Below are positions 19,549-59,639 of a stretch of DNA of 64,000 nucleotides, in pieces. The notes under the pieces were generated by a model. It was not told where the DNA came from and made no database searches. It worked only from the letters and a program-made list of their open reading frames with translations. Source of the DNA: Squalus acanthias. Lineage: Eukaryota. Numbering within the stretch: position 1 is the first letter of the stretch; every line of letters begins with the position of its first letter. A program made the position numbers and the translations under genes. Location of the stretch: NCBI GenBank assembly GCA_030390025.1, contig CM059431.1:153824001-153888000 (forward strand), in the 5' to 3' direction.

Positions 19549-19809
19549 GGAACCATTCTCGGAAAAATTTGCTGCACCCTCTCTAAGGCCTTCAAATCGT
19601 TCTTAAAGTGCGGTGCCCAGAATTGGGCGCAATACTCCAGTTGAATCCAAACCAGTGTTTTATAAAGTTCATGATAACTACCTTGCTCATGTGTTCCATG
19701 CCTCTAGTTATGAAGCCCAGGATCCTGTATGCTCTTCGAACCGCATTCTCAATCGACTCTGCCATTTTCAACGAAATGTGTACACATACCCCTTTCTCTC
19801 GGAAATAGT

Positions 19810-19950
19810 CAGCAGGTCAGGCAGCATCTGTGGAGAGAGAAACAGAGTTAACGTTTGAGATCGATGACCCTTCGTCAGAACTGGCGAAGGGTCATCAACC
19901 TGAAACGTTAACTCTGTTTGTCTCTCACAGATGCTGCCTGACCTGCTGAG
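19810..19950. repeat. Penelope-derived inverted repeat with hammerhead-like cores
   Basis: cagcaggtcaggcagcatctgt...acagatgctgcctgacctgctg arms; CTG(A/G)CGA-agggtcatc-..-(G/C)AAAcgtt on both strands. Confidence 0.7.
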
Positions 19951-21329
19951 TATTTCCAGCATTTTCTGTTTTTATTGCAGATTTCCAGCATCTGCAGTTT
20001 TTTGCTTTTGTACCCCTAGATCTCTCTGTTCATGCACCTCTTTAGAATTGTAATCTTTAGTTTATGTTGCCTCTCCTCGTTCTTCCGACCAAAATATATC
20101 ACATCACACTTTACTGCGTAAAATTTCATCTGCCACGTGTCCGCCCATTACACTAGCTTGCTTATGTGTTCTTAAAGTCTATGATTATCCTCGTCACTTT
20201 TTACTATACTTCCAAGCTTTGTGTCATCTGCAGATATCGAAATTGTGCCCTGTACACACATGTCCAAGTCATTAATATATATCCAGAAAAGCAGTGGTCC
20301 TAGCACAGACCCCTGGAGAACATCACTGTATACCTCCCTCCAGTCCCAGAAACAACCGTTCACTACGACTCTCATTTCTTGTCACTTTGTCAATGTCGTA
20401 TCTAACCTGCCACTGTCCCTTTTATTACATGGACTTCAGCTTTGCTGGCAATCCTATTATCTGTCACTTTATCGAACGCTGTTTGGAAGTCCATATGCAC
20501 AACGTGAGCCGCATTGCCCTCATCAATCCTCTCTGTTACCTCATCAAAATCCTCGATCAAGTTATTAAACACGATTTGCCTCTAACAGATCCGTTCTGGC
20601 TTTCTTTAATTAATCCTCATTTGTACAAGTGGCTGTAAATTTTTTCACTGATTATCGTTTCCAAAATACTTCCCCACTACTGAGGTTAACCTGACTGGCA
20701 TGTAGTTGCTGGTATTAGTTCACACACTTTTTTCAACAAGGGTGTAACATTTGCAATACTGCAGTCCTCTGGCACCACCGCTGTATCTAAGGGGGAATGG
20801 AAGATTATGGCCTCCGTTCTTTGAGTTCATCAACGAACTCGGTCAAGTAAGCCAAACACGATTTGCCTTTAACAAATCTGCACAGACTTTCATTTATTAA
20901 CCCATACTTTTTCCAAGTGCCAATTAATTTTGTCCGGATGTCTTAACGTTTCCCCACCCCCGAAATTAGACTGATTGGCGATAATTGACCGGTTTCTCTT
21001 CCTCCTTTTTTTGAACGGATTGTGTAACATTTGTCACACAGCAGTTATCTGGCGCCTCTCCCAAATCAGAGGAGCATTGGGAGATTATGGCAATAGACTC
21101 CGCAACTTCCACCCTTTTTCCCCTCAGCAAACATCCCGACAGGGCGATTTTTCTAGTTTCATTACTGAACACCTTTTTAGTACATGCACTTTAACCCCAT
21201 CTAAGTCTGCTTCGTTTTGTCCCCCTGTCTGATAGCTCTTATTTCTGAAATATTATTTTTCGTAATGCTGTTTGTCACTCCCAGTTCTCTGTGATTTTCT
21301 CTCTCCTATCTAATAATTCATTCTTGCCC

Positions 21330-21850
21330 CATCTATCTGTCAAATTAATTTATACCCTCCCCCACAAAACTAGTTAACCTACCAGAGACGATATTGCTCC
21401 CTGCCTGTTACAGTGCTACACTCCCATATTTTACAGAGTTATTCTGCACCATACCTGTTACAATGACCGAGGAATCTGAAGCCCACCCTCCGGTACCATT
21501 TCTCCAGTCGGGCTTTACCCGTTAATATTTTACTGCTCATATACTCACTAGCACGCAGCACTGCGTGTAATCCAGAGATTACTAACTTTTAAATCCTGTG
21601 CTTTAAACTTATTCCTACCTGCTAAAAATCTGTCTGTACGTTAGCAACCCTTTTCCTACCTACGTTATTGGATGCAACATAGACTACGACTTCTGGCTGT
21701 TCCGGTTCCGTCGCAACATGTTCTGCGCCTGTTTAGTGATGTCCTTTACCCTGGCATGAGGGAGGCAACATACCATACTAGAATCACGTCGGCGTTTGCA
21801 GAAAAGCCTGTCTATCTCCATGACCATCGAATCGCCTATGCCCAATTTAC
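21330..21850 (-). mobile_element. CR1 ORF1 (SGNH esterase) fragment
   Basis: IGDSMVMEIDRLFC...MVCCLPHARVKDI is homologous to ORF1 at 59831. Confidence 0.75.
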
Positions 21851-23071
21851 TTCTGAACTTTTCTGTGCCCCCTGTGAAGTAATTTGCCCCACTGCGCCGT
21901 GGATGTGCTCTGCAGTACATGACAACATTAACTGCACTTCAAAAAATAAGTAATTGAATGTAAAGCACTTTGGGACGTCCTGAGGTCGTGAAACCGCAAT
22001 GTGAATGCAATTTCTTTCTTGCTTTAGACTGCAATTCCCCGTGCTGTTGTCCGCATTGAAAATAAGTTTGAGACTGACACATTCCCGGGGGTTTCCTGTA
22101 TTCCCTGCCGTTCCTACCCAGCAGATGGCCACACTCTTACTGTACTTCAGAAACAAGAGTGATACTGATAATGGTGCAAAACGTCAAATTACATGGTCAA
22201 GTGTGCCTTCCGTTACCCTGAAACCTCCCTTAATGTTTCACTTTCCAATGAAGAGCACCAGATTTTGTCCGCAGCAGATTTTAAAAATATATATTCTAAA
22301 GTTATAAATTGGTATATTGTTACGCATTGGATACACTCTGGCAGAACTCTTGCACTTATTTGAAAGTTGCATTGAGGTTACCTTAAACGAGCACTTTTTG
22401 TGCTGAATACAAGAGTTTGCAAGTGTGTGGTGTTGTCTCGCAGGATTCAGTCAGGGGCCACTTATGTTTCTATTACTAATTTTAATATAGATCTTGTTCA
22501 ATACTTGCAGATGGTGTAAAAATGAAGTATTTATATCTTTCCTAACGTGATATATAGTTACCATTTAGGAAATTGAAAAAATAGATGTGCTAAAACTGAC
22601 ATATGAAATCAAGGTCTGTGTCAGTTAATACATACTTCTGAAATATCAGCTGCAATTGCACACTGAATTGAGGTAGATTCGGAGCTGTGGCGGAGCTGAG
22701 TGATGAAAGGGTACACGTTCACATGATATAAAAGGCAGCACCTCAGGTTGGTAAGACCGTAGAAAAATGAACTGTAGTCTAGGTTTAATTTCAAGTGTTA
22801 TAGAATAAAGAATTTCAGATAGTAATGTATTTATATAAACACTTAGTAAGACAGCCATTGGAGTAGTGTGTGTGCACAATTAAGCTATAGTCTTCAGGAA
22901 GGATATTCAGGTCTACAGAGCGTCAAATCAGATTTACTGGTATGCTAACTGATATCATCTAAACAGATACAAATGAAGACTTGGAAAGCTCCTTTTTCTC
23001 ATTAGAACCGCACATATTAAGAGTGATGTGATAGATATTTTTAAAATTATGAACTGTTGAGAAAAAATAGA

Positions 23072-23504
23072 TAGAAACATAGACATAGAAACTAGGAGCA
23101 GGAGTAGGCCATTCGGCCCGTCGAGCCTGCTCCGCCATTCAATACGATCATGGCTGATCATCCAAATCCAGTACCCTGTCCCTGCTTTAATCCCCACAGT
23201 ACACATATCCCACCCTACCCCCGTAACCCCACGTATTTAATTCCCCCTAACATATCCCATCCTATCCCCATAACCCCACATATTTAATCCCCCCTAACAC
23301 TAAGGGTCAATTTATCATAGCCAAATCAACCTAACCCACACATTTTTGGACTGTGGGAGGAAACCGGAGCACCCGGAGAAAACCCACGCAGACACGGGGA
23401 GAATGTGCAAACTCCACACAGACAGTCACCCGAGGTCAGATTCGAACCCGGGTCTCTGGCGCTGTGAGGCACCAGTGCTAACCACTATGCCACCGTGTTG
23501 CCCG
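23072..23504 (-). mobile_element. V-SINE (HE1-like), near-identical to 19111-19548
   Basis: Direct comparison; absent from the equivalent site in unit B (~28325). Confidence 0.85.
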
Positions 23505-23899
23505 TAGCAGGCTATTTTCATTAGCTGATGTATCACGAACAAAGGAGGTAATTAAGTTAACGTTTAGATTTTCCCAGTCCCACATAGAATTGAAGCCACT
23601 CCCAAACAGTTAGAATACGGATTAAATCAAAAGGTGAAATTACATCACCACAATTGAAGAAAACAGGCCGATGAAGCAACAAATTCACTTGTTTTCCGAA
23701 ACACATTTGCTGTTTAAGTTTCAGTACTTGAAACTCGGAGCCTGATACTCATGAGTGGGAACATCCTGATCAAGGCAGAGGCGTTAACACATCAAACAGA
23801 GACTTTCTGCCGGAGAATATAATCATTGCTCTTTTGTTAATAGGAAAACGAACCATGACAGCAATTGTACACAATCATGGCAATAAGTATTAGATTAGC

Positions 23900-25390
23900 A
23901 TAAGAACATAAGACATAAGAACATAAGAAAATAGAACATAAGACGTAGAAGCAGGAGTAGGTCATTTGGCCCCTCGAGCCTAATCCGCCATTCAATAAGA
24001 TCATGACTGATCTGATCTTGGCCTCAACTCCACTTCCCTGCCTGCTCCCCACAACCCTTCACTCCCTTACCTTTCAAAAATCTGTCTCTCTCCACCTTAA
24101 ATATATTCAATGACTCAGCCTCCACAGCTCTCTGGGGAAGAGAATTCCAAAGATTCACGACCCTCTGAGAGAAGAAATTCCTCCTCATTTCCGATTTAAA
24201 AGGGTGCCCCCTTATTCTGAAATAATGTCCCCTAGTTCTAGATTCCCCCACGAGTGGAAACATCCTCTCTGCCTCTACCCGTTCAATCCCCTTCAGAATC
24301 TAATATGTTTCAATAAGATCCACTCACATTCTTCTCAACTCCAATGAGTATAGGCCCAACCTGCTCAACATTTCTTCATAAGATAATCCCTTCATCTCCG
24401 GAATCAACCTCTTAAACCTTCTCTGAACTGCCTCCAACGCAAGTACATCCTTCCTTAAATAAGGAGACCAAAAATGTACGCAGTACTCCAGGTGTGGTCT
24501 CACCAACGCCCTGTACAGTTGTAACAGGACTTCCCTACAATTGTACTCCATTACCTTTGCAATAAAGGCCAACACTCCATTTGCCTTCCTAATTAATTGC
24601 TGTGCATGCATGCTAACTTTTAATGATTCATGTAGAAGGACCTCTTCTGATCGCTCTGTTCCTCAGCATTTCGTAAACTCTCTCCATTTTAATAATAATG
24701 GGCTTTTTTATTTTTTCCTACCAAAGTGGAAAACCTCGCATTTTCACACATTAATCTCCATCTGCCAAATTTTTGCCCACTTACTTGGCCTATCTATATC
24801 CGTTTGCAGATTATTTTCGTCCTCCACACAATTTGCTCCCACCTATCTTTGTATCATCAGCAAATTTGGCTACATTATACTAGGTACCTTCATCCAACTC
24901 ATTAATATAGATTGTTACTAGTTGAGGCCCCAGCACTGATACCTGAGGCACACCGCTAGCTAAGGTTTGGCAAGCTGAAAATGACCCATTAAACCCGAAT
25001 CTCTATTTTCTGTTAGTTAGCCAATCCATGCTAATATATTACCTCAAGCTCTGATTTTGTGTAGTGGCAACTTTCTGGTAATCCAAATACACGACATCTA
25101 CTGGTTCCCCTTTATCCACCCTGCTCGTTACTTCCTCAAAGAACTCCAGCGAATTTGTCAAACCTGATTTCCCTTTCATAAACCATGCTGACTCTGCTTG
25201 ATTATATTGTCATTTTCTAAATGTCCTGCTATCCCTTCTTTAATGACGGATTCCAACATTTTCCCAATGACAGATATTAGGCTAACTGATCGAAAGTTGC
25301 CTGCTTACTGTCTCCCTCCTTTCTTAAATAGGGGCGTTACATTTGCGGATTTCCAGTCCGCTGGGACCTCTCCAGAACCAGGGCATTTTG
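23900..25390 (-). mobile_element. CR1 LINE 3' portion
   Basis: ORFs KANGVLAFI...LVRPHLEYC and FFSQRVVNLWNSLP; (ttcttatg)n tail. Confidence 0.85.
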
Positions 25391-28300
25391 GTCGGAAATG
25401 GGAGTAGCAGTAGCCCATTTGGCACTTCGTGCCTGTTTCGCCATTCAATGAGATCATGGCAGATCTCATACCTCATCGCCACTTACCTACACTATCCCCA
25501 TATCCGTTGATGCCCTTAATATAAAGGGCCTCATAGCGAGATTACCAGGACCGGGATTCGAATGTAGTTCATTTGCACAGAGATAGAATCTGGACAAAGA
25601 AGCAGCTAGATATCGAAATTTAAGATAATTCAAAACAGTTAAAGTTTCAGTTTTGTGAGATTACTGTGCCCTTCGATCTGTTGCTAATCTAAGAAACTCA
25701 AAGCGATCTTTGTTCGTTGCTATCTGTGTCAATTTATATTCCGATAATATATTAGTTTTATGGTGAACAATAACATCGTGTGGAGGACACGGAGCTGATT
25801 CCTGCAACTGAACACAATTTATCTGCGGGGTCTTCTGAACTGCAGATGGAAGAGCCGGGGGACATTTAATAATTTTTAGCACACCAAGCATTAATGACTT
25901 TGGTTAAAGGATCAGTAACTCACCAGAACAGTTCAACCTGAATGAGACCGTGTTTATTTCAGATCAAGCCCTGCACCAGAGATCAGGGTGGGGAGATATT
26001 GTACTGATCAGGGCTGATGGTCGTGCTTATAACGGTGATATGTAGCTGATCTTTACCCAGGGTGTATTCATTAACATGCAAACATCCAACGTTATCTTAT
26101 CCGGATTGTCTGGAACCAGAATCAGTAGCCGCAGCACAAGGTAAGGACCGGAATATACTGAGCACCATTATAGTGTTTTAATGCATTTGAAAAGTTGCAG
26201 TATCCATCATGGATCAAGTAAGAAAATATTGTTTTTTCAGAAATTAATTTACTGGAAGTACCGCCATTTAACAGAATAAAACTTCAAAATGTAAACTCAT
26301 ACCCTAAAATTATATTGGTGCAAATAGTATATCAATATTTTTTATCGTTTATGACACGGCTATGATCAAAAAGTTAGAAGTTGATATTCTTCAACATAAA
26401 TCACAAACAGTAACCATCACCGACATCTTAGATTCCAGCCATGGGTGGTTAACTTTCATTCAAACCGTATTGACCTCAGGATTCTAGAGCTCCTTGTGCC
26501 AAACGAATCAAATGACGACTTGTAGTCGAGGAGAGGTATGTTCACATTTCCTCTGTCATTTATCTCGTGCACCTGTAAACTTATCAGGATCGAGGAGTTC
26601 AAGCATTACCCGAAATTCGCGTCGGTGCGCAGTTGATTAATAAGTGAGTGTGGCTTGATCACGCTATTTATGAGTCGCTCCATCGCTTTGCTGATCATTG
26701 AGAGGTGACTGATAGGAGGATAATTGGTTTGAGTCAGTGTGTGCTTAATTTCGCGGATAGGATATAGCTGGTCATCCAAAATATATCCCTCAAGAGCAAA
26801 AATTCCACTTGTGCAGTCAAATAACCATGATAAAAATTTGAGTTAAGAAGCAGTATAAAACTAATGGCAGGGACTTACACAAATAGCAGAAGACTGTCAA
26901 AAATATAGAAAGCAACTAAGGGCCACGAAGAAAATATTAAAATCTGCTTGAATGGAACACGAAAAAATTTCCAAGCGATATAACTGTTAATTATTAAATC
27001 ATGTATAAATATATCAAGTTTAAGACAGTGGCTGATGGAGATGTGCACATATTAATGACAGACACAGGTGATACGGAAATAGTTAACAAGGTGATAGCTG
27101 AGTTTTTTAAAAAAGTACTTTGTATTGGTTTTCACAGCAGAGCAAGATGACAAAATACCAATGATAGAAGGGAAACTAAAAATAAATCAAGGAGAGGAAC
27201 TTACTGTATTCCAAATTTTAAAAAAGTAATGGGGGAAATAAATGAAGTTAGGATAGATACTTCTCCAGGACCTAGTACTTCCCACCACAGGGTATTAAAA
27301 TAAGCAGGGGTGGGATATATACAAACGTTATGTGAATATACAGAAGGCGTTTCGTGCCTTTCCCACCCAGCAGATGGTCACACTCTTAATGTCCTTCAGT
27401 AAAAAGAGAGTTACTGATAATATGGCAACATATCATATTATATAGTCAAGTGTGATTCCCGTTACCACGAAATCTTCCTTAATGATTCAATTTCCAAAGA
27501 AGAGCAACAGTATTTGTCCGCAGCAGAATTTAAAAAAAATATATATACTAAAGTGATAAACTGGTGCATTTTTACGCATTGGATACACTCTCGCAGACCT
27601 CTTGCACTTATTTGAAAGTTGCATTGAGGTTACCTGAAACGAGCACCTGTTGGGCTGAAAACAAGTGGTTGGAATAGAGTGGAGGTGAGTCGCAGGATTC
27701 AGTCTGGGGCCATTTATATTTATATTACTAGTTTGAATATAAATCTTGGTCAATATTTGCAGATGGTGTAATAATTAAGTATTTATATATTTCCTAACGT
27801 GATATATAGTTACTATTTAGGAAATTGAAAATATACGGGATGTGCTAAAAATGACATTTGAAATCAATGCAGTGTTAGGTGATACATATTTGTAAAATAT
27901 CAGCTGCAATCGCACGCTGAATTGAGGTAGATGCGGTGCAATGGAGGAGCTGAGTGACTTAGCGGATTCAGGTTCACGGGACATAAAAGGGAGCACCTCA
28001 GGTTGATAAGTCCGCAGAAAATGCAATGGTACTCTAGGTTTAATTTCATGTTTTATAGAATAAAGAAGTTGAGATAGTAATGTATTTAAATAAACACTTA
28101 GTAAGACCTCCATTGGAGTAGACTGTGCTCCATCAAGCTATAGTCTTCAGGAATGATATTCAGTTCTATGGAGCTTTACATGAGATTGACTGGTGTGCTA
28201 CCTGGTATCAGCTAAACAGATACAAATGAAGACTTGGAAAGCTATTTTCTTCATGAGAATCGCACATATTCGGAGTGATATGATGGATGTGTTTAAAATT

Positions 28301-29080
28301 AAGAACGGTTGAGACAAGATAGATAGAAGCAGGCTATTTTCAGCAATTGAGGTATCAGGAACAAAGTAGACAATTAATTTAACGTTCAGATTTTCCCAGT
28401 CTCACAATGAATTGAAGCCGCTCCCAAACAGTTCAAATAAAGATTAAATCCAAAATAGAAATTACAACATCACAATTGAAGATAACAGTCCGATGAAGCA
28501 GCAACTTGACTTGTTTACCGAAACACATTTGCTGATTAAGTTCCAGTAATTGAAACTCGGAGCCTGATAATCATGGGTGGGAACATCCTGTTCAAGGCCG
28601 AGGCTGTAACACATCAACTGGGGACTTTCTGCCGGAGAATATAATCATTGCTCTTTTGTTAATAAGAAATTAACCGGTGACGGCAATTGTACACATTCAT
28701 GTCAATAATGATTAGATTAGCATAAGAACATAAAACATAAGAAATAGGAGTATGAGTAGGCAATTTGGCCTTTCGCGCCTGTTCCGCCATTCAATAAGAT
28801 CATGGCTGATCTTCTACCTCATCGCCAATTTGTTGTATTATCCGCATATCCCTTGGTTCCCTTAATATGAAGGTCCTCATACAGGGATTCGAATGTAGTT
28901 CAGTTACATAGAGTTAGAATCTGGGCAAATAAACAGCTAGTGATCGAAAGATAAGATGATTACAAGCACTTAAAGTTTCAGTTTTGTGAGATTACTGTGA
29001 CCTTCCATCTGGTGTTGAATCTAAGAAACTAACAGCGATCTTTGCCCGTTGCTATCAGTATTTTATATTCAGATAATAAT

Positions 29081-29839
29081 TTGCCCAGAAATTAAACATG
29101 GATGGTTCCCGCGGGGGTAAGGATTCCCCGCGTTATCGCACTCCGCGCCTACCTTTTTGTTTGTGGCCCACATGAACTTTAGTTTCAGAGCCTCTTCTTG
29201 TTGCAACCGCGCAGTGTGTGCGTCTCCCAGAGGCGCAATTAGTTCGTGCGACCTCTGGGATCACGTGATTAAGTTAGAGCCAATGGCAAACACCATCTTT
29301 CATTCATAGCTTTGACAGCAAGAGCTGTCAAAGCATGAATACTACAAACCACCAAAAGAACAGCTAAACCTCAATAAATTAAAAAAGCCATCACATTAAT
29401 AAAATAAGTATAGTTAAATAAATTAACCACTTTAAACAAAATTGTAAATTTTTGAAAATCTTTAAAATTCATTTAAATGTTATAAAAATAAACTTACCTT
29501 TCTTTAAAGTCTCTCAAAAAGATAAACCTGTTGAAAAAAATCAAAATAACACTTAATTAACTACTTACCTTTTTAAAAGGGGGTCCTACGCCTGCTTTAT
29601 TTATGTGTAAAATCTTCACCACTTACCTGCGCGTTCAAAGCTGATAAAATAAACTAAGTGCGCTGCGTGCGCACAACCTGTAGTGCGCACGCGGTTCACT
29701 TAGGAACGGCCCCCTTTTCAGTTCATGAATTGCCGGTTTCCCGCGCATGCGCAGTGCATGCAGGAAACCGGCAATTCGGGATCAAATACGCGAGAGTACA
29801 CAGTGCGTACTCTCGCGTATTAGGTTTAATTTTCGGGCC
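29081..29839. mobile_element. MITE insertion specific to unit B
   Basis: TIRs gcccagaaattaaac / gtttaattttcgggc; empty site in unit A near 25745. Confidence 0.75.
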
Positions 29840-30800
29840 AAAGTATTTTTATGGTGATCAATAACATCGAGGTAAGGACACGGAACTGATTCCTGCAACT
29901 GAACACAATTTCTCTGTGGGGTCTTCTGAACTGCAGATGGAAGAGCCGGGGGAAATTTAATAATTGTTAGAACAACAAGAATTAATGACTTTGGTTAAAG
30001 GATCAGTAATTCACCAGAACAGTTTAACCTGAATGAGATCGTGTCTGATTCGCTTCAAGCCCTGCACCAGAGATCAGGGCGGGGAGAGATTTTACTGATC
30101 AGACTGAAGGTCGATCTTGTGACGGTGATGTGTAACTGATCTTCACCCAGTGTATAATCATTAACCTGCAGAACTCACAACGCTCACTTACCCAGACTAT
30201 CTGGAAACAGAGCCAGGAGCCGTGGACCAGGTAAGGACCCGGAAATTTCTGAGCATCTTTATTGTGCTTTAATGTATTTAAAACGTTGTAGTATCCATCA
30301 TGGATCAAGTAAGAAAATATTGTTTTTTCAGAAATTAATTTACTGGAAGTAGCGCCATTTAACAGAATAAAACTTCAAAATGTAAACTTATTCCCTGAAA
30401 TTATATTGCTGTAAATAGCATTTTTTTCTCGTTTATGATACGGCGATGAACAAAAAGTTAGGAGTTGATATTCTTCAACATAAATCACAACCAGTAACCA
30501 TCACCGTAATTTAGATTCCAGCCATGGGCGGGTAACCTTCATTGAACCCGTATTGACCTCAGGATTCAAGAGCTCCTTGTGCCAAATGAATCAAATGACG
30601 ACTGGTTGTCGAGGAGAGTTGTGGTCACTTTCCCTCTGTCATTTAACTCTTGCACCTGTAAACAAATCAGGATCGGGGAGTTCAGGCATTGCCCGAAATT
30701 CCCGTCGGTGAGCTGGTGATTAATAAGTGAGTGCGGCTTGAACACTCTTTAAATGATCATGATGCGGAAATGCCGGCTTTGGACTGTGGTGGAGAAAAAT

Positions 30801-30991: not shown

Positions 30992-31159
30992 ACTATTTAT
31001 ATGAGTCACTCCATCGCTCTGCTGATCATTGAGAGGTGACTGATAGGAGGATAATTGGTTGGAGTCAAGTGTGTTCTTAATTTTGTGGGTAAGATATTGC
31101 TGGTCTTCCAAAATATATCCCTCAAGAGCATAAATTCCACTTATACGATTAAATACGAT

Positions 31160-32595
31160 TAAAATCACTAAGGAATTGGTATTCAGTAAAATAATGGGAC
31201 TCAAGGCGGATAAATCCCCTGAACCTGATGGCTTACATCCTAGGGTCTTGATGGAAGTGGCAGTAGGGATTGTGGATGCTTTGGTAATAATTTTACAAAA
31301 TTCCCTGGACTCAGCAAAGGTCCCGGCAGATTGGAAAACTGCTAATGTAACACCCTTATTTAAAAAGGGTAGTAGGCAGAAGGCTGGAAATTACAGGCCA
31401 GTTAGCCTAACATCTGTGGTGGGTAAAATTTTGGAGTCTATTATTAAGGAGACAGTAACGGAACATTTAGATAAACATAATTTAATAGGACAAAGTCAGC
31501 ATGGCTTTATGAAGGGGAAGTCATGCCTGACAAATTTGCTTGAGTGCTTTGAGGACATAAAGGACAGGGTGGATAAAGGGGAACCAGTGGACGTAGTGTA
31601 TTTAGACTTCCAGAAGGCATTCGACAAGGTGCCACATAAAAGATTATTGCTCAAGGTAAAACATCACTGGATTGGGGCTAATATTCTGGCATGGGTGGAG
31701 GATTGATTATCTAACAGGAAGCAGAGAGTTGGGATAAATGGTTCATTCTTGGACTGGGAACCAATAGCCAGTGGTATTCCGCAGGGGTCGGTGCTGGGTC
31801 CCCAACTCTTTACAATCTATATAACGATTTGGAGGAGGGGACCGAGTGTAACATATCAAAGTTTGCAGATGATACAAAGATGGGAGAGAAATTAGAAAGT
31901 GAGAAGGACATAAAAAACCTACAAGGGGATATAGACAGGCTGGGTGAGTGGGCGGGGATTTGGCAGATGCAATACAATATTGGAAAATGTGAGGTTATGC
32001 ACTTTGGCAGGAAAAATCAGAGAGTTATTATCTTAATGGCGAGAAACTGGAAAGTACTGCAGTACAAAGGGATCTGGGGGTCTTGGTGCAAGAAAATCAA
32101 AAAGCTAGTATGCAGGTGCAGCAGGTGATCAAGAAGGCCAACGGAATGTTGGCTTTTATTGCTAGGGGGATAGATTATAAAACCATCGAGGTTTTGCTGC
32201 AGTTATATAAGGTATTGGTGAGACCGCACCTGGAATACTGCGTACAGTTTTGGTGTCCATACTTAAGAAAATAAATACTTGCTCTCGAGGCAGTACAAAG
32301 AAGGTTCACTCGGTTAATCCCGGGGATGAGTGGTGGACAAATGAGGAGAGGTTGAGTAGATTTGAACTCTACTCATTGGAGTTCAGAGGAATGAGAGGCG
32401 ATCATATTGAAACATAAAAGATTGTGAAGGGGCTTGATTGGGTGGATGGGAACAGGATGTTCCCAAGGATGGGTGAAACTAGAACTAGGGGGCATAATCT
32501 TAGAATAAGGGGCGGCTCTTTCAAAACTGAGATGAGGAGAAACTTCTTCCACCAGAAGGTAGTAGGTCTGTGGAATTTGCTGCCCCAGGAAGAAG
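31160..32595 (+). mobile_element. CR1 LINE RT region, upstream part, interrupted by the LTR element
   Basis: NYRPVSLTS, VVYLDFQKAFDKVPH, FADDTK and LVRPHLEYC motifs. Confidence 0.9.
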
Positions 32596-34259
32596 TGTAA
32601 GGGATTCTGACCCTGCGTGTCTCGCAGCCTGTGAGATTCACGCGGCTCTGTGCAGCCTGTATGTCAGTGCGGGTCTAGGCCGTGTTGCCTGTTCTGGTCT
32701 CCAGCCAGTTCTGGGACACTAGACACACCTGTGAGTGGTTCGAATCACTCTCCCTTACGGTTCTAGACACTGGACTTTGATGCGAGAGCAGCAATAGAGA
32801 TGAAACTCATGTAGACTTGGTTTGAATGGTACGAAATGGAAAATCTTTATTGCATGATACTTAAGATTATGAAATACATGTCATAAGCACAGATTAATGA
32901 CAGTACAATCTTACAAACAGTTATATAGTCGATCTTAGGGAAACGAGGAACGAACGGCACAAAGTAAATAGGGGCACACATTACAAATATCCTTAATCCT
33001 TAAACCCTCCCCTATCAATATCTATCCTAAACTAGATTCGTAGGATCTCGAGACTCATGCTCACCACTCGTGATAACTCGGAGAAATTCCGAATAGCTGA
33101 TCGGATGTTTTTCACCGCAGCACCCACGTGTTGGTCAGGAGATCTCCTGGTCCCACTTGTTTCCTTGCTTCTGCTGCTCCGGCTAGCAGGCTGGAACGTC
33201 TGCTGTGATGAAGATCTGTATTGGTGGCTTTCACATTCCAGTTACTTTGGGCACAGTCCAGTTATCATCGATGCAATATGTTTCGTTATAAGTTCGAAGA
33301 AGTCTTCCTGGCGAGGAAAACTTGGCTAATCGACCTACAGGCGCGGTCGGGATTTACTGACCGTGGCGATGGATATGGTCTTCCTCTCTTCTCATCTCAT
33401 CTCATCTCATCTCTTCTCGGGCCTTTTGGTTCCGATACCGGTTACCAATATAGGTCTTCGTTACGCGACACGAGGTTGATCCGAACGGATCAGAAAGTTC
33501 AACAGTCTTTTCAGAAGAGGCAACAGGCAAGCAGAAGCCCAACTACGAGTACACAGGAGCAGCCACGAGGTTACGAATCGACCGGATAAGAGCACAGGAG
33601 CAGCCACGATGATAAGAGCAGCAAGAGAGAGAATGGACGGTTTGGAGCCTGCAATTATAGTGCAAAATCTTCCGTTTCCCGCCCAACTATAATGTCCATT
33701 CTTTTGTTTAAGGTCTGGCGCTCAAATGTCTTGTATGGGTGATCTCCGTTCTTAATGGGTTTCGGGGCTACTCGTAAATGTCTGAGTACCTGTTAATATT
33801 TCTCCCATTGTTAAATCGGTCGGTAATCTCCCTGGAGGGGTTTGGGGCTTCCAAGTGTCCTGTATAACTACCTGCTAACGGCTCTCTCATCGTAGAGTCG
33901 TTGGGATTTTACATATTAATGTCTTTTGGATGGGCCCTTGATTACTCGGTACAATGGCTTTCCTTTGTACCTGGGAGACCGATTTCAGTATCTATGTGTA
34001 TACTGCAAACCCATAATGTCTCGTGTATTATCTTCACTGTGCTGACTCTTAATCGATCTTGCACAAATGTTTATTGGAACGCCATCTTGTCTGCCTGTTG
34101 AAAAGTCCAGAATGTTCTGTCACGAGGTGCGGCGGCCATTTTACAGGCTGCTTGTGTCCACTTTAAACCTGCCAGCATTCTACTGAAATAAAAGCTGTTT
34201 GAACGAAACTCTGTGTTTTCTCCTTATTAATAAAATCGCGATATATTGCGAATTCTACA
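32596..34259 (-). repeat. 3' LTR (1664 bp)
   Basis: Direct repeat of 40299-41963; preceded on the minus strand by the PPT; AATAAA at ~32846-32851. Confidence 0.95.
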
Positions 34260-34260
34260 G

Positions 34261-34271
34261 TCCCTCCTGTT
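34261..34271 (-). promoter_or_regulatory. Polypurine tract
   Basis: aacaggaggga lies 1 nt before the 3' LTR TGTA on the minus strand. Confidence 0.7.
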
Positions 34272-34709
34272 GATGCGAATAACTCTGCTTATCGTATCAA
34301 AAATCATAGTGGTGAGCAATATTATCTCGATTTCTCTCCGAATCCAGCAAATTAATCCCATAATTTTAATTTAGCTAGGGTCTCTGTGTCGTCCTCATTT
34401 CCCAAGAAAATTACATTTTATATCACCGTAGGCATTATTTGCCCTTAAACTTACACCACTTGTTTTCCTTCCCGGCGTAACCAGGCCGATGCTTCTCGTA
34501 TCACCTGTATATTCATCTTTTATTCAGGGAAAGGAAAAACAGAACCCAAAACCAAACAATCATTTTTAACTGTAACACCATCACCAAAATAATCAACACC
34601 AACTCTTAAAACATGTCGAGTTTCCAACGTATTTACAATCTCTGAAAATCATGATTGAGTACAAACTTCCGCGGCGCACGTGGCGAGCGGGAGTGACGCC
34701 ATTTTCCGA

Positions 34710-37061
34710 TCACACGGTGCTTTCATCGTGCACGCGCACGTAACGTTCTCGCCACTCTCCCGTGTTTTCATGCTTGGTGAGGCGCTTGTCTCTTTTACAA
34801 TGTACGACCAATAGGTACACTACAATAAACACTTGGCATACGACTAAAATGTGGGAGGCTATTCTGATCCATGAAGGTACTTCAATATTAGTGAACAGAT
34901 TCCACCACGGTGGAACTACTATATCCAGAATGTCTGTTCCTATTTCGACAGTTTTCTGCTCTAATGTGTAAAAGTGTTTCTGTGACACCGCGACGGCTTT
35001 TAAAAGCTTGGTGAGGTGTTCAGGGAGAGGGGGAATGAGGTATCCAAAATGCGCGACGAATCGCTGCAAGTCGGTGAAATTCTCTTTTACTGTGAGATGA
35101 ACAGTGGATGGTTCAGGGATTGGGATAATTCGCTGTTGTGCTACTTGAACTTCCGCCCTGGGTTTAAAACAGAAACTGCTGTCACTCACCGGACACCGGC
35201 TACGGTTTCCATGCTGGTAGTGTTGCGCTGCAGTGGTAACACAATATGTTCCACCCCCGATGTATGCTACCTGCGGAGGCACATGATCTTGTGCCATTGC
35301 CTCCATGGTGCAATTCATGGACTTGGCGCCAGTCGTTCTGAACCCACACTGTGGTGTTAAAAAGGCATTCAAGTGCTGGGGGCACAGTATTATGTGTGCT
35401 CCCCTGCCACGACAACCAGAGAGATCTGTACCTGTCATCGTTTGCTCCCAGCGGATGACGTAGGGTGGAACCGCTGCATAGCGAATGTGGGCTACCCCCT
35501 GAATGACACCAATGTTCTCTACCCGATACACCGGGGCGGGCTTTGCTGTGTCGCCCAAAACCGGCATACGTAATACTATTCCCATAATAGTATGGTTTGA
35601 TCGTCCGCAGTCCACGGGGACTGGGTAAGCTTCTGAAGCTAGCCTGAGCTGGCATGGACTTAATGCGTTCTGAAAAGGGTGGAGCGCCCGCAGGTGTTTG
35701 TTACTTATCCAGGACGGAACCAAACCTTGTTTTAAATCCTCCAAATTACTGCGGCCCTCGCCCAGTAACCACGCCCCGTAAAGCACGCACACCTCGTTCT
35801 GCGCAGCTTGATCGGATGCATTCCGATCTTCCCTAATCAGGGCATTTACCGTCTTTGCATGTTTCTCCAACTCTGCTATAATTTCCTTTAAATGGAGGGT
35901 CATGGCTTGGTCCTCGTGTAGACCCGACCCTACCACTTTATTCTCATCTGTTAGAATGTCCTTTAATTGTGTCTTTAAACCATTAATCTGGGTCTGCAGC
36001 TCCACACTGTCTAGAGCGTAGACCACAGATGTACCCGTGTTAAAAGCGGTGAACGCATCGTTCACCAAACCCCTTCTTTGCCTCCCTGCTTGATTCAAAA
36101 CTTCCTGTGGTGCGGTGTACAAACTTGTTTTATCAATTTCCGCGAAATCGAATTCGTAAAATTGTCTGAACATCTTGGTCAACAGGACCTGGTACAACTG
36201 TTCCGTCTTTTTGGGGCACCACTCTGGTAACCGCACCTCAGTGAGATTTAAAATCACCGAGGCCACCGCGTAATGTACCCCCTGAAATAGTATCTGGTCT
36301 GTGGGGACCAGTACCAAACCATTCCCGGGTCCCTTACTAGTTTTAGGGCACCCTTCTTCCTCAGCTAGAACCACCGGAATCGTGGGCGGGGCTTTGCGTG
36401 GGCGCGTAATGAGCTCAGTGGCATTTACTGGGATCGGGGAGAATGGGGCTCCGCACCCCCTGGTGCTCGCATCCCACCTCATCCCCTGTCCGTTATGCTG
36501 CCATTGATTAATAAAAAATATGGAGATGCCTTTGGGGCAAACGTACTTTGACCCCCACATACATACATAAATTCCCTCATCCGGTTCCCACCATTTGTCC
36601 CAACAGACTTTCACTTGTCCGTCTGTCCCCGTAATTGTCCGATGGGTATTATTACCCAGTCGTTCCCACTCGACCGAAGAGTTCCTCATAGTTTTGCTCA
36701 GCTTTCGCAGCCACCACCATCGGCTCAATGGGACCTTCCCACTACAAGTCAAACAAATCCGTTTGCCGACGGTGACGCTGATCCTGGGTGCGATGATCCT
36801 TACTTTGGGGCACAGTAAAGAAGTCTCTTTGTAGGCAAACCCCGATGTGCTGGAATACTCCGTTGAGTTCGTTCCCAGCCATCCTGGCCACCTTCCCTTG
36901 TGGAAATAGGTGCTGGTCTCCTCTGCCTCCCGTCTTCCGGTCCCATCCACCGCGATGGGGGCCGTGTCCCCGGAACATCCAAACACCACGACATCCTTGG
37001 TGCGGCCTCGATAGGCCAATCCACATCCGATTGCCGCGAGCAATACTAGAATTCGTTCCAT
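34710..37061 (-). CDS. env: Envelope / class I fusion glycoprotein, ~783 aa from the signal-peptide ATG (ORF open from 37244)
   Basis: Strong-context aggATGG with signal peptide MERILVLLAAIGCGLA; Ig-like segment; furin site RQRR (36072-36083); fusion peptide and heptad repeat; Cys-rich region; TM helix IASHILVVCQVFIVVYLLVV; about ten N-glycosylation sequons. Confidence 0.9.
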   Translation of the reverse strand: MERILVLLAAIGCGLAYRGRTKDVVVFGCSGDTAPIAVDGTGRREAEETSTYFHKGRWPGWLGTNSTEYSSTSGFAYKETSLLCPKVRIIAPRISVTVGKRICLTCSGKVPLSRWWWLRKLSKTMRNSSVEWERLGNNTHRTITGTDGQVKVCWDKWWEPDEGIYVCMWGSKYVCPKGISIFFINQWQHNGQGMRWDASTRGCGAPFSPIPVNATELITRPRKAPPTIPVVLAEEEGCPKTSKGPGNGLVLVPTDQILFQGVHYAVASVILNLTEVRLPEWCPKKTEQLYQVLLTKMFRQFYEFDFAEIDKTSLYTAPQEVLNQAGRQRRGLVNDAFTAFNTGTSVVYALDSVELQTQINGLKTQLKDILTDENKVVGSGLHEDQAMTLHLKEIIAELEKHAKTVNALIREDRNASDQAAQNEVCVLYGAWLLGEGRSNLEDLKQGLVPSWISNKHLRALHPFQNALSPCQLRLASEAYPVPVDCGRSNHTIMGIVLRMPVLGDTAKPAPVYRVENIGVIQGVAHIRYAAVPPYVIRWEQTMTGTDLSGCRGRGAHIILCPQHLNAFLTPQCGFRTTGAKSMNCTMEAMAQDHVPPQVAYIGGGTYCVTTAAQHYQHGNRSRCPVSDSSFCFKPRAEVQVAQQRIIPIPEPSTVHLTVKENFTDLQRFVAHFGYLIPPLPEHLTKLLKAVAVSQKHFYTLEQKTVEIGTDILDIVVPPWWNLFTNIEVPSWIRIASHILVVCQVFIVVYLLVVHCKRDKRLTKHENTGEWRERYVRVHDESTV

Positions 37062-37244
37062 CCTTCCTTGGTTCCTGTGATCAGATAGAATGAGGTAGCC
37101 AGCCTCGCAAGAGTCTCTGGCTTTTGTGAAGGGTGAGCGGGTCCCCTGACCTCGCCTCACGTAAACTTCAACGTTCGCTGAATAAACTTCAACTAAACCT
37201 ATCTTTAAAGCTCCCATCATTTTATCGTTTTCTGTTAAAAACAC

Positions 37245-37345
37245 TACAATCTTAACCTTATTAAAACTATAAACTTAACCTTGAACTATTAACTTAAAAC
37301 TTAACCTTGAACTATAAACTTAAAACTTAGAACTATAACTTTACA
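37245..37345 (-). promoter_or_regulatory. T-rich short-repeat tract upstream of env (candidate splice-acceptor region)
   Basis: Repeated aacttaaccttgaactat units; minus-strand tttttaacag just downstream (~37232). Confidence 0.35.
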
Positions 37346-37372
37346 GTGCCGCCCGTTCTCAGGGCGGCCCCT

Positions 37373-38482
37373 TTAAATTCTGAGAAGGCTGCTGCGAGCT
37401 CTTCCCGACGGTGGGAGGGTACTGACCCTTCCCTCTGATCTGCCGCAGCCTGTTACTGCTGCGATGTGGCCGGTCTGTATCTGGGTTATCTTAACCTTAA
37501 ACTTACGCCTTGGGGCAGTCTGGGGACATGACCACATCCTCCTGGGCTGGGGTTCTCTCCTTGACCTATGGGGAGTTGCTATGGGCGGGGTTTCCGTGAC
37601 GGACGGACCGGGTTCCGAGACTTCCATCGGGATGACCTGGGGTTCCATCACAGTCGCTGGCTCCGCCTCCGCTGACTCCGCCTCCCTAACCTCGGGGCTG
37701 GCAGTTCGTGGCTCCGCCCTGCTCGGCCCAGCAGGCAGCCCTTCACTCGTGATCTCTGCCTCCCCCGAGGACGGGACGTTCAAAGCGGGCGGCCACATCT
37801 CTGGGAGCCACACCGGTACTCTCTGTGCTCCCATAGCGGCTGGCCCTGCCTCCCCTAGCTCCTCCCTCCTGTCTTCGGGACCTGCAGCTTGTGTGTCCAC
37901 CCTGTGTGGATCTCTACCTACAGCCCCCATTCCCTCCAGACCGTTCCTCAGGAACCACCCGTCGTCATCACTATTCCCATCTGCACTATCCTCATCTGAC
38001 CCGGGTACCCTGAATTCTTCCTCATCTAACCCCCAATTCCAGAAAAACGCTGCATGATCGTCCGGGATGTCCCTTCCCCTGATGCAAGCTGCTATGCCTG
38101 CCTGTGTGCCTTGTGGTCCTACCTGGGGCTGTGCTTCCCCACTGGCGGGGTTTACCCCTGTGGTTTTCCCTTGCGCACCTGGCTGGTACAGTTTGCACTG
38201 GTTTGCATCCTCATACTCCCGGCTTTTGGCTACCCTGTAGGCTGCTTTTATCTCACTAAGCTGCGCTTCTAGCCTGAGCACGTCTAACTTTCCCATTGAT
38301 CGGGCGTTCTCCTCCCGCAGGGCCTGCTCTCTAAGCTGCCCTTCCAGCCCATCTATTTTCCCTATTAAGCGGGCGTTCTCCTCCCGCAAGGCCTGCTCTT
38401 TTAACCTGGCCTCCTCACCGCAGACCCCCTCCTGTGCGTGTCTTTTAAAAGGACACAGGTAGGCAGGCTGCGTGGGCTCTAG
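37373..38482 (-). CDS. ORF2 of unknown function in the pol position; in frame with gag after TGA-CTAG
   Basis: Open from the codon after the gag stop (LEPTQPAYLCPF...) to 37373; coiled coil followed by acidic/Pro-rich sequence; no PR, RT, RH or IN motifs. Confidence 0.7.
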   Translation of the reverse strand, partial: LEPTQPAYLCPFKRHAQEGVCGEEARLKEQALREENARLIGKIDGLEGQLREQALREENARSMGKLDVLRLEAQLSEIKAAYRVAKSREYEDANQCKLYQPGAQGKTTGVNPASGEAQPQVGPQGTQAGIAACIRGRDIPDDHAAFFWNWGLDEEEFRVPGSDEDSADGNSDDDGWFLRNGLEGMGAVGRDPHRVDTQAAGPEDRREELGEAGPAAMGAQRVPVWLPEMWPPALNVPSSGEAEITSEGLPAGPSRAEPRTASPEVREAESAEAEPATVMEPQVIPMEVSEPGPSVTETPPIATPHRSRREPQPRRMWSCPQTAPRRKFKVKITQIQTGHIAAVTGCGRSEGRVSTLPPSGRARSSLLRI

Positions 38483-40294
38483 TCATTGGGTACTATTAGA
38501 CGGTCCTGCGGCACCTACGGGGCCGGTTGCGACCGCCACCTGTCCACGTGCATTCAAGACCAGCTTGCGCATGGCTCCTAACACCACTTCGAGTTCGTCA
38601 GGAGGGGTGGGTGCCTTAGCTTCCTTAGCCGGGACAGGCGCCTGGGCTCGGACCGCGGGATTTTTATCCTTGGAATCCTTCCAAGGGTTCCTGCAATGCT
38701 TGCGCCAGTGCCCTGTCTTCCCACACCCGTAACAAGCATTACCTGCCTGTGGGGCGCGATTACCCTCCTGATGCCACTCTCTTTGATACGGGGCTGCGGG
38801 TCGTACCTCATGTACTCTTCCCTTAAGGGGACGTGTTGCCATACCCCTTATATTGCGATAACCTAACGTGAGTCGATTCAAGACCGACTCTTCCGTAATG
38901 TTGGGGTCATTGGGATCAAACCATGCTTTTGCCTGCTCTCTGACGGCTGGTAAACTGTTGGCTATTATGCACCTAAGCCAATGAGTTAAAGCGGTGCCTT
39001 CCACATCTTCGCTCTCGGGCGCACCTAGGCAGCTGCGCTCATATACTGGCCACAGCCTTTCGGCAAAAACCTTCGGGGGTTCTCCCTCCATCTGCACTGT
39101 CTGTCCCACTCTAGCAAACGGACCTTCGTCGTTCGCCCCCAACACTTCCAGGACCTCATTCTTTAATTCCTCATAACTCTTGGTTCCCCTCTTGCTCTCG
39201 CCTTAGAGACACTGAAGGACCGAGCTGTCTAATGAGAACAGCAGCATTTTTGCTGTCTCCCCATCATCGCAGCCGTTAATGGCTGCGTCTTGCTCAACTT
39301 CTCTGAAATGTACGGAAGGGTCGTCTGCCTCGGTCAGCTTCCGTACGTGATTTATCATAGCTCTCAGCTGATGTGAACTGTGAGGCAACACCAGCTGTCC
39401 GAGGAGATCCCCCGGTTCTTCCCCACCGTTTCTGCTTGGGCCCCTTTTAATACCCGTTACTGGATATTACGATCCCTTTCCTACTTCTTTTTCAATGGGC
39501 TCTTTTGTTTCTTCCATTGCTTCCTCCCTAACCCAGGTTTCTGAATAGCTGGGTGGCGCGGAGGGCGCAGTGGCTACTACTTCTTCTGCTTTACTTGGTG
39601 GGGATTTTCTAAATCTCTCATTTACTAGCGGCTGGTGCGCCGACGGATTGATAAGGCACACCATGCCGTTCGCATTGTTCACGGCCTTTTTGAGGTGCTC
39701 TATCTCCCTTTGGCAGGCGCTATGATCGGCTCCCTGAAACTTATCCTCAAGGGCCAACTTATATGCCGCCCTAACCCCCGTCAAGCTCTCTTCTTGAGTT
39801 CTTATCTGGGCAGCTTGGCGGTTACATCTTTCCTTTAACCTGCTCTCATTCAATTTTGCCTCAGTGACCTGGCACTCGAGATAATCTATCCTTGTTTTAA
39901 GGTGACTGGAGACTTCCTGGCTTTCTTGGTGTAACTCATTTAAATTCTTAATGAGCACCTCCCCTCCAGAAACCTTCTCATCCATTTCTCCCTCTAAATG
40001 ACTGATTCGAGCTACTAGCGCTGTAATGGTCTGGTTTGAAATCTGAACCTGCCTTTTGTAACACATAAGCCAGACTGCTTTCTCAAGTGTCTTTCTATGT
40101 TCTTTACTATCTGTCCACCTTTCAGCTGCCTCTAGTGGGCTTTTATCCGCTAACAATTCACTTATCCATTTCTTAGTTAGATTAACCTTTCCAAACACAT
40201 AATCCGCTATCTTTTCCTGCATAACATTTCGTACAGTCATTCCAAAATCTAACACACTACCCTCTCGCTGCCAGTGTCCTGCCGCGGTCGCCAT
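38483..40294 (-). pseudogene. gag: gag (~603 codons) with two in-frame TAA stops (39467-39469, 39203-39205)
   Basis: Three listed ORFs share one frame; coiled coil, PSAPPSY, MHR-like QMEGEPPKVFAERL, CCHC knuckle CYGCGKTGHWRKHC (38693-38734). Confidence 0.9.
40276..40293 (-). promoter_or_regulatory. Primer-binding site (tRNA-Ser-like, tentative)
   Basis: TGGCGACCGCGGCAGGAC begins 5 nt after the 5' LTR; resembles TGGCGTAGTCGGCAGGAT (recalled vertebrate tRNA-Ser complement). Confidence 0.65.
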
Positions 40295-40298
40295 TTTC

Positions 40299-41963
40299 TG
40301 TAAGGGATTCTGACCCTGCGTGTCTCGCAGCCTGTGAGATTCACGCGGCTCTGTGCAGCCTGTATGTCAGTGCGGGTCTAGGCCTTGTTGCCTGTTCTGG
40401 TCTCCAGCCAGTTCTGGGAACACTAGACACACCTGTGAGTGGTTCGAATCACTCTCCCTTACGGTTCTAGACACTGGACTTAGATGCGAGAGCAGCAATA
40501 GAGATGAAACTCATGTAGACTTGGTTTGAATGGTACGAAATGGAAAATCTTTATTGCATGATACTTACCATTATGAAATACATGTCATAAGCACAGATTA
40601 ATGACAGTACAATCTTACAAACAGTTATATAGTCGATCTTAGGGAAACGAGGAACGAACGGCACAAAGTAAATAGGGGCACACATTACAAATATCCTTAA
40701 TCCTTAAACCCTCCCCTATCAATATCTATCCTAAACTAGATTCGTAGGATCTCGAGACTCATGCTCACCACTCGTGATAACTCGGAGAAATTCCGAATAG
40801 CTGATCGGATGTTTTTCACCGCAGCACCCACGTGTTGGTCAGGAGATCTCCTGGTCCCACTTGTTTACTTGCTTCTGCTGCTCCGGCTAGCAGGCTGGAA
40901 CGTCTGCTGTGATGAAGATCTGTATTGGTGGCTTTCACATTCCAGTTACTTTGGGCACAGTCCAGTTATCATCGATGCAATATGTTTCGTTATAAGTTCG
41001 AAGAAGTCTTCCTGGCGAGGAAAACTTGGCTAATCGACCTACAGGCGCGGTCGGGATTTACTGACCGTGGCGATGGATATGGTCTTCCTCTCTTCTCATC
41101 TCATCTCATCTCATCTCTTCTCGGGCCTTTTGGTTCCGATACCGGTTACCAATATAGGTCTTCGTTACGCGACACGAGGTAGATCCGAACGGATCAGAAA
41201 GTTCAACAGTCTTTTCAGAAGAGGCAACAGGCAAGCAGAAGCCCAACTACGAGTACACAGGAGCAGCCACGAGGTTACGAATCGACCGGATAAGAGCACA
41301 GGAGCAGCCACGATGATAAGAGCAGCAAGAGAGAGAATGGACGGTTTGGAGCCTGCAATTATAGTGCAAAATCTTCCGTTTCCCGCCCAACTATAATGTC
41401 CATTCTTTTGTTTAAGGTCTGGCGCTCAAATGTCTTGTATGGGTGATCTCCGTTCTTAATGGGTTTCGGGGCTACTCGTAAATGTCTGAGTACCTTTTAA
41501 TATTTCTCCCATTGTTAAATCGGTCGGTAATCTCCCTGGAGGGGTTTGGGGCTTCCAAGTGTCCTGTATAACTACCTGCTAACGGCTCTCTCATCGTAGA
41601 GTCGTTGGGATTTTACATATTAATGTCTTTTGGATGGGCCCTTGATTACTCGGTACAATGGCTTTCCTTTGTACCTGGGAGACCGATTTCAGTATCTATG
41701 TGTATACTGCAAACCCATAATGTCTCGTGTATTATCTTCACTGTGCTGACTCTTAATCGATCTTGCACAAATGTTTATTGGAACGCCATCTTGTCTGCCT
41801 GTTGAAAAGTCTAGAATGTTCTGTCACGAGGTGCGGCGGCCATTTTACAGGCTGCTTGTGTCCACTTTAAACCTGCCAGCATTCTACTGAAATAAAAGCT
41901 GTTTGAACGAAACTCTGTGTTTTCTCCTTCTTAATAAAATCGCGATATATTGCGAATTCTACA
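40299..41963 (-). repeat. 5' LTR (1665 bp)
   Basis: Direct repeat of 32596-34259 with about ten differences by eye; followed on the minus strand by PBS and gag. Confidence 0.95.
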
Positions 41964-59630: not shown

Positions 59631-59639
59631 AACTCACTT

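Follow-up and report, generated by a model that had tools for sequence, protein, structure and literature searches.

The closest described kind of envelope to the one analyzed here is that of the lokiretroviruses, which in the accessible portions of its description is F-like, with a signal peptide, basic site, fusion peptide, coiled coil, and transmembrane segment; lokiretroviruses themselves are listed for none of three Orectolobiformes genomes (Wang and Han, PMC7947760). F has been described, in the sections available, as a minimal scaffold that accepts receptor-binding modules either N-terminally, as in spike, or between subunits, as in foamy virus Env; F itself lacks a head, and the foamy receptor-binding domain (RBD) lies ahead of the cleavage site and has a novel fold (Fernandez et al., PMC11468914). 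A second kind of precedent is provided by gamma-type RBDs (Friend MLV, 1AOL; FeLV-B, 1LCS; EnvP(b)1, 6W5Y), which according to the available text have IgV topology, occupy the N-terminus of SU, and are followed by a proline-rich hinge (PMC12051499, PMC9967133). The foamy Env structure raised the question of how a bare F scaffold gains an attachment function of its own. In paramyxoviruses attachment is carried by a separate protein, and for F-type retroviral Envs (loki, foamy, and epsilon) we know of few or no receptors.

The present study analyzes an endogenous retrovirus in a 64-kb stretch of the Squalus acanthias genome (64,000 nucleotides, hereafter the window), the Env of which very probably carries an Ig domain in front of an F-type fusogen.

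The element and its envelope gene

The element occupies positions 32596-41963 on the minus strand and consists of two LTRs, gag, a further frame, and an intact env, without pol (Table 1). It is a young insertion, given that the LTR pair is 99.5% identical and a 4-bp target duplication, GAAG, is found on both flanks. The primer-binding site we take to be that of tRNA-Arg, and no tRNA gene was found within the 64-kb window. The N-terminal region of gag is a coiled coil, as is that of BHIKHARI Gag in the available text of its description (2024.03.25.586437). From its position the middle of gag would be capsid-like, followed by one CCHC knuckle (zf-CCHC, E 0.034) with weak nucleocapsid matches. 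Motifs of reverse transcriptase (RT), protease, and integrase were found in none of the coding frames of the element. A 551-nt contig from another sequencing run covers the junction between the 369-codon frame and env (36853-37430), and the pol-less junction is therefore not peculiar to the copy in the window. Among the sequencing runs listed, at least half of the env words were present in at least 20, which came from 5 organisms and 9 studies, and no RNA run was among those carrying them.

Table 1. Positions in the window of the element's components, the segments of Env, and the anchor codons of the Ig-like domain
Feature	Position	Strand	Remarks
5' LTR (~1,664 bp)	40299..41963	-	1656/1665 aligned bases equal to 3' LTR (99.5%); TG...CA ends
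Primer-binding site	40277..40294	-	starts 5 nt inside LTR edge; overlaps gag ATG
gag	38483..40294	-	two in-frame stops, near 39467 and 39203
369-codon frame downstream of gag stop	37373..38482	-	coiled-coil and Pro/Glu-rich; not pol
env ORF, 783 aa	34710..37061	-	uninterrupted; likely start Met at 37061
Env start and predicted signal peptide, residues 1-16	37014..37061	-	signal peptide read by eye; start shared with relatives
SU N-terminal segment, residues 17-84	36810..37013	-	conserved C29; 46-79% identity in relatives; pLDDT <50
Likely Ig-like domain, residues 85-186	36504..36809	-	C106/C167, W117, DEGIYVC, extra C103/C153, C175
C103 codon	36753-36755	-	Ig-domain anchor
C106 codon	36744-36746	-	Ig-domain anchor
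W117 codon	36711-36713	-	Ig-domain anchor
C153 codon	36603-36605	-	Ig-domain anchor
D161 codon	36579-36581	-	Ig-domain anchor
C167 codon	36561-36563	-	Ig-domain anchor
Post-Ig segment and proline-rich linker, residues 187-237	36351..36503	-	31-67% identity to relatives
F2-equivalent SU part, residues 238-330	36072..36350	-	ends in furin-type RQRR; pLDDT 82-93 over 241-300
RQRR furin-type site, residues 327-330	36072-36083	-	
F1-equivalent subunit, residues 331-783	34710..36071	-	fusion peptide, heptad helices, Cys-rich domains I/II
Transmembrane helix, residues ~733-754	34800-34865	-	single TM helix in Env
3' LTR	32596..34259	-	LTR-LTR comparison

An in-frame Met is also present upstream of env, at 37220; the relatives start where the Met at 37061 lies, and their first residues resemble a signal peptide. 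Within SU, conservation is lowest over residues 187-237, and the linker at 205-236 contains 7 Pro (22%, vs 6% in the ectodomain). A fusion-peptide-like stretch follows RQRR, and helices occupy residues 330-444 and 680-712.

The core of this Env is almost certainly of the paramyxovirus F type (class Ib), as predicted from a full-length model built from 44 sequences, in which confidence was high for most of residues 241-650 but poor for the head. In Foldseek the core matched hPIV3 F at E 1.9e-11, with 232 matches at E <=0.001, and among predicted viral proteins it matched the Envs of WEHV1 (Q9WHI8, E 2.7e-12) and WDSV (A4GTG3, E 5.8e-10), as well as baculovirus F. By VIA the F protein of NDV aligned over 351 residues (245-714) with Z 12.3 and rmsd 17.9, and foamy Env followed with Z 8.3. 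A profile of Env searched against the PDB retrieved 8ozh, a chain of an envelope glycoprotein (E 8e-4), as well as foamy gp130 (E 0.005). The predicted model shares the domain I, II, and III core of class Ib, and the protein has the basic site followed by a fusion peptide, heptad helices, and one TM helix that mark this class; neither CX6CC nor CX7CC occurs after the cleavage site. Since foamy and epsilon Envs have an F-like core in common, this core is not diagnostic of a lokiretrovirus. That group is defined by an RT sister to those of canonical retroviruses together with a tether and a new RNase H, and the element, having no pol, is set beside it by Env alone; the pol sequence seen among relatives was fragmentary and came from gene models of whale-shark type (P0018, P0025).

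The Ig-like head

An Ig pattern of Cys, Trp, and DxGxYxC had been proposed for the surface subunit by a sequence-only reading, at 36545-36800 (residues ~88-172). The pattern is indeed there, on the minus strand within the uninterrupted env ORF, and the proposed interval overlaps the domain, but better bounds are residues 85-186. When the whole Env was shuffled 20,000 times, a regular expression for the Cys/Trp/[DE]xGxYxC spacing, composed post hoc with the motif already known, was matched 6 times, and with as many shuffles of residues 17-237 it was matched once. The distance from C106 to C167, 61 residues, lies inside the 55-75 expected between the B- and F-strand Cys of V/I-set domains. The domain also contains 8 Trp, and CLTC (103-106) is the sole CXXC in the Env protein.

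The loss of these residues in homologues, named beforehand as part of a refuting outcome, was not what we observed. The anchors were kept, the close env relatives named being those of skate, sawshark, catshark, and whale shark, with 47-74% identity over the Ig domain. Among relatives covering each site, C103 and W117 were conserved in 7/7 and C106 in 6/7, with Phe in one fragment; C153, G163, Y165, C167, and C175 were each present in 6/6, and position 161 was acidic in all six (D in five, E in one). C106 and C167 are predicted to form the B-F disulfide and C103 and C153 a B-E pair. In the antibody register, as we apply it, C103 and C153 would take facing outward positions on strands B and E, which would explain their joint conservation. 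Conservation of the domain was 73% vs 76% for the fusion core in P0002 and 59% vs 68% in P0055.

Residues 85-186 very probably adopt an Ig fold of V/I type. Pfam Ig_3 (PF13927) was retrieved at E 0.44 with the whole protein and 0.051 with a 100-aa piece, and, of 7 aligned members, 5 also matched it (best E 0.0017), while the others are truncated fragments; scores among the matches listed were 11.5-18.6 bits, all under the curated 30-bit cut-off, and the head is not filed under Ig_3. A family profile searched against the PDB gave as its two best matches the CRTAM domain, at E 0.017 and 0.031, in an alignment of ~90 residues that brings the Trp and the two Cys into register, and the match weakened to E 0.077 when a longer profile was used. 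A search with the single whole Env sequence gave only 2 chance matches in the PDB. In the ESM Atlas the top score was 0.91 and all ten of the best family-bearing matches shared a family or clan (Ig), with 153 of 256 features in common, where true members of a family typically share 170.

Both structural models were poor over the head. An AlphaFold model of the domain from 7 sequences had seven strands in Ig order at a mean pLDDT of 51, and the full-length model had pLDDT blocks of 35-68 over the same region. With the domain model (pLDDT 51) Foldseek gave a best E of 0.023 and nothing at E <=0.001, although ~46 of the 49 listed rows were, by our own reading, antibody, CD8, CD147, or NITR chains, which is to be seen against the swamping of the PDB by antibodies. 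In VIA, also with the pLDDT-51 model, bacterial and fungal beta-sandwiches reached Z 5.5, above V domains at Z 3-4; nothing attained Z >=8, and the matches listed included no gamma-type RBD. Four approaches that are not fully independent, namely Pfam, the PDB profile, the Atlas, and Foldseek, agree on Ig. The Ig-type domain first proposed from the motif is likely, and the F-like nature of the fusogen behind it is well supported by the model of the core.

Three other accounts of the head were set aside. In a Siglec-type V domain a B-E disulfide replaces B-F and the F strand carries an Arg; the head has both Cys pairs and no F-strand Arg, which does not fit a Siglec-like sialic-acid binder. The head is not the Ig-fold domain II of F itself, given that the match to F covers residues 245-714 and the head 85-186. 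Nor is it a fusion artefact of gene models, as it lies in a single genomic ORF in the window and recurs in separate contigs (P0010, P0055).

An exchangeable N-terminal slot

A search of 1.84 billion proteins with Env gave 49 matches, and relatives with an intact N-terminus differed upstream of a shared Cys-Pro start of the core. Scans of metagenome and viral contigs with Env gave 35 and 3 pattern matches, respectively, none of them relatives. Ten relatives had a known N-terminus, and the slot held an Ig-like domain in five, a Cys-rich module in three (P0012, P0023, and P0031, all from sharks), and nothing in two (P0037 and P0047, coelacanth). The same head as in the window, for which presence in related Envs had been proposed as a check, is found in P0001, P0002, and fragments. 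Other Ig-like heads occur in P0013 from a bamboo shark (automatically named "Ig-like domain-containing", with a weak antibody VH match at E 0.054), in P0019 from the frog Pelodytes (VH match, also weak, E 0.0049), and in P0035, which scores as V-set (Pfam E 0.045; Atlas 0.93 with 184 shared features), gave no PDB Ig match at E <=5, and is without the Cys pair.

A tree of the core was calculated from 10 rows, unrooted, with fragments and near-duplicates omitted and three rows trimmed where gene models diverge. It requires at least three changes of module. A single clade of the five Ig-bearing rows, with labels fixed before the first tree, was rejected at p-AU 3.2e-64, and a clade of P0001, P0002, and P0013, a group picked afterwards, at p 0.0002. 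The Cys-rich clade was nearest to that of the window, headless P0037 paired with Ig-bearing P0035 (99/99), and P0047 was a long branch. Ig-bearing Envs thus do not form one clade, and the head has accordingly been exchanged, gained, or lost repeatedly; gains and losses look alike in a minimum-change count because the tree is without a root.

Where the head came from may be considered in the light of these patterns. The sequence-only reading called it captured from the host, for which we found no support, since a host Ig protein was absent both from the 49 protein matches (20 of them checked by name) and from 10 profile matches. That absence favors an old viral module, inherited within the Env family with losses and replacements or obtained from another virus, as opposed to a recent host gene, and to this explanation we give even weight for and against. 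Consistent with it, the minimum-change count is compatible with either gains or losses, and the profile of the window's head scored higher against the P0013 head than against any of 40 shuffles. The heads of P0019 and P0035 were, however, not detectably related to it (2/40 and 4/40 shuffles as high), and profile-profile comparison with the P0013, P0019, and P0035 heads was non-significant, at E 0.1-0.2. The P0035 head, with its missing Cys pair, resembles another type of V-set domain, suggesting at least one separate acquisition. A bolder explanation, which we regard as doubtful, is that F-type retroviruses of sharks, rays, and amphibians repeatedly plugged host cell-recognition Ig domains into the Env slot as ready-made ligands; if this were so, a change of receptor would come from replacing an entire adhesion domain of host origin and not from mutations in loops.

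Function of the head and comparison with known systems

We consider it moderately probable that the conserved, likely V/I-type Ig head on this intact F-type Env is a receptor-binding head in a variably filled slot, and, taken separately, that it binds a receptor is on balance probable. An attachment role is suggested because the F scaffold takes N-terminal modules, because gamma-type Envs set a precedent, and because no second glycoprotein gene was seen in the element. After synthesis with a signal peptide, Env would trimerize and undergo cleavage at RQRR; residues 17-205, the head, would remain on the F2-like subunit by way of the proline-rich hinge and bind a host surface protein, and once bound would aim, and perhaps trigger, F-type refolding. 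Weighing against this is conservation near that of the core, whereas retroviral RBDs have variable loops, so that a structural role also fits.

In that structural role the Ig fold would be a cap or chaperone that holds or shields the metastable pre-fusion trimer, with receptor binding placed in the F core or with no protein receptor at all. Conservation of the head is close to that of the fusion core, the head has 8 Trp and extra conserved Cys, and headless Envs exist (P0037, P0047, and 22 published Loki Envs), so that entry by the F fold does not need a head. A cap is nonetheless unlikely, in that the head is joined by a variable proline-rich linker, as in RBDs, and the content of the slot changes across lineages while the core stays, which a pure cap would presumably tolerate less.

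Viral mimics of host proteins usually stay recognizable, which bears on the possibility, also raised when the domain was first noticed, of immune mimicry. Here the head would engage a host IgSF immune receptor (nectin-, CRTAM-, or CD2-like) from the virion or the surface of the infected cell and be dispensable for entry. The best solved match is CRTAM, the head of the distant relative P0035 scores as a V-set domain, and viruses do use Ig-like immune modulators (PMC12051499, available text); but the CRTAM match is weak, no close host counterpart appeared in the protein or profile search, and the position and hinge of the head match those of receptor-binding modules. We judge this modulator distinctly unlikely, and receptor binding would seem to fit the anatomy better than mimicry does. 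Very unlikely is a convergent Cys/Trp-rich viral beta-sandwich that only resembles Ig, with CLTC as the gamma-type CXXC thiol-exchange motif, for although profile scores are sub-threshold, models are poor, CLTC is the only CXXC, and the sister Cys-rich module has a similar C-x-x-C (15 columns; 1/60 shuffles as high), all Ig anchors are present, rightly spaced, and conserved, the TM subunit has no CX6CC partner, and the partly overlapping fold searches favor Ig.

An Ig domain had been called unusual for an envelope protein. This calls for some qualification, since gamma-type RBDs already have IgV topology and Ig-fold viral heads are therefore known, but a canonical Ig domain recognizable from sequence on an F-type Env is unusual. 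In the literature searched, mostly open-access and with preprint supplements outside it, we found no account of an F-type retroviral Env that bears an Ig domain. The word "immunoglobulin" is absent from the lokiretrovirus main text as available (PMC7947760) and has no occurrences in the accessible text of PMC12440569, bioRxiv 2023.10.26.564294, PMC13709493, PMC4422223, PMC5210030, PMC10435555, PMC11673190, or PMC9040795. Zebrafish Env38 was considered as a precedent and rejected, because "Ig-like" in the available portion of that paper concerns CD4 (PMC10072453).

Compared with lokiretrovirus Env, the F2-like part of the window's Env opens with a similar GP-x-x-G motif (compared by eye). In the entries available, the motif comes almost immediately after the signal peptide in 22 of 23 lokiretrovirus Envs, one being partial, and none has an Ig head, unlike the window's Env, in which ~220 residues intervene. 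Class Ib fusogens (paramyxovirus and pneumovirus F, foamy Env, and coronavirus spike) have the same core as is predicted here, and the Ig-fold domain II of F, an internal part of that core, is distinct from the head. Epsilonretrovirus Envs (WEHV1, WDSV) are likewise fish retroviral, with an F-like core by prediction and large extra parts, but are much longer, at 1,159-1,317 aa, and share 12% identity with the window's Env. The CRTAM Ig domain (PDB 4H5S, 3RBG) is the best solved sequence match to the head, with the Cys pair, Trp, and DEGxYxC aligned, but at E 0.017 only, and there is no sign of orthology or of a donor relation.

The significance of the locus is twofold. First is that the Env family provides a natural series on one core, with no head, a Cys-rich head, or several Ig heads, and that the identity of the receptor in cartilaginous fish becomes testable with a domain that is small, can be expressed separately, and belongs to an element active in recent times. 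Secondly, the gamma-type RBDs resemble the head in topology, N-terminal position, and hinge, but are much larger, belong to class Ia Envs with CXXC/CX6CC, and lack the canonical Cys-Trp-DxGxYxC signature kept by the window's head, which is attached to an F-type fusogen without CX6CC. Two unrelated classes of retroviral fusogen have likely come to the same layout of Ig-fold head and proline hinge.

N-terminal heads of the Env relatives

The N-terminal Cys-rich module of P0012 and P0023, Env relatives from the sister clade in the core tree, has two features in common with the likely Ig-like head of the window Env, namely a short V-x-x-G...C-x-x-C segment and Y-V-C at Ig-like spacing. When module and head were compared, an equal or better score was obtained in one of 60 shuffles. 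The module may be a degenerate Ig domain or may be unrelated. Among the more distant Env relatives with Ig-like heads, P0019 (Pelodytes, residues 1–66) has a hydrophobic helix at its N-terminus followed by a basic site, REKR, and then the head, an arrangement that we take to resemble a foamy-virus leader peptide. The head of P0035 (residues ~15–128) is V-set-like, lacks the Cys pair and is presumably CD2/CEACAM-like. In the core tree, P0035 lies closest to P0037, an Env that is completely headless.

Viral matches to the core and env in host gene models

Predicted structures in BFVD that matched the F-like core strongly include the Envs of the epsilonretroviruses WEHV1 and WDSV (Q9WHI8 and A4GTG3) and, likewise, a fish filovirus glycoprotein. 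Pieces of env have also been absorbed into four host gene models (P0003, P0004, P0018 and P0025; Niban-1-like, ZFP2-like). In two of these models env is linked to segments that are RT-like or RNase H-like, which hints at pol-bearing relatives.

Primer-binding site, gag end and neighboring repeats

Features of the element and other repeats in the window
Feature	Position	Strand	Description
Primer-binding site	40277–40298	minus	starts 5 nt inside LTR edge; overlaps gag ATG; presumably tRNA-Arg-like
gag stop and downstream frame	37373–38485	minus	TGA followed by CTAG
Satellite-like array	~4200–8400		degenerate; basic spacing 27 bp
RT-like ORF fragments and dispersed repeats	31134–32128, with repeats at 19112–30756 and 58274–59635		presumed CR1-type LINE-like

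The bases at the gag stop form what we assume is a readthrough-type context. Past it, the same reading frame encodes not pol, but a coiled-coil protein similar to the N-terminal coiled coil of Gag; this sequence may be related to the 'smc' gene of lokiretroviruses.
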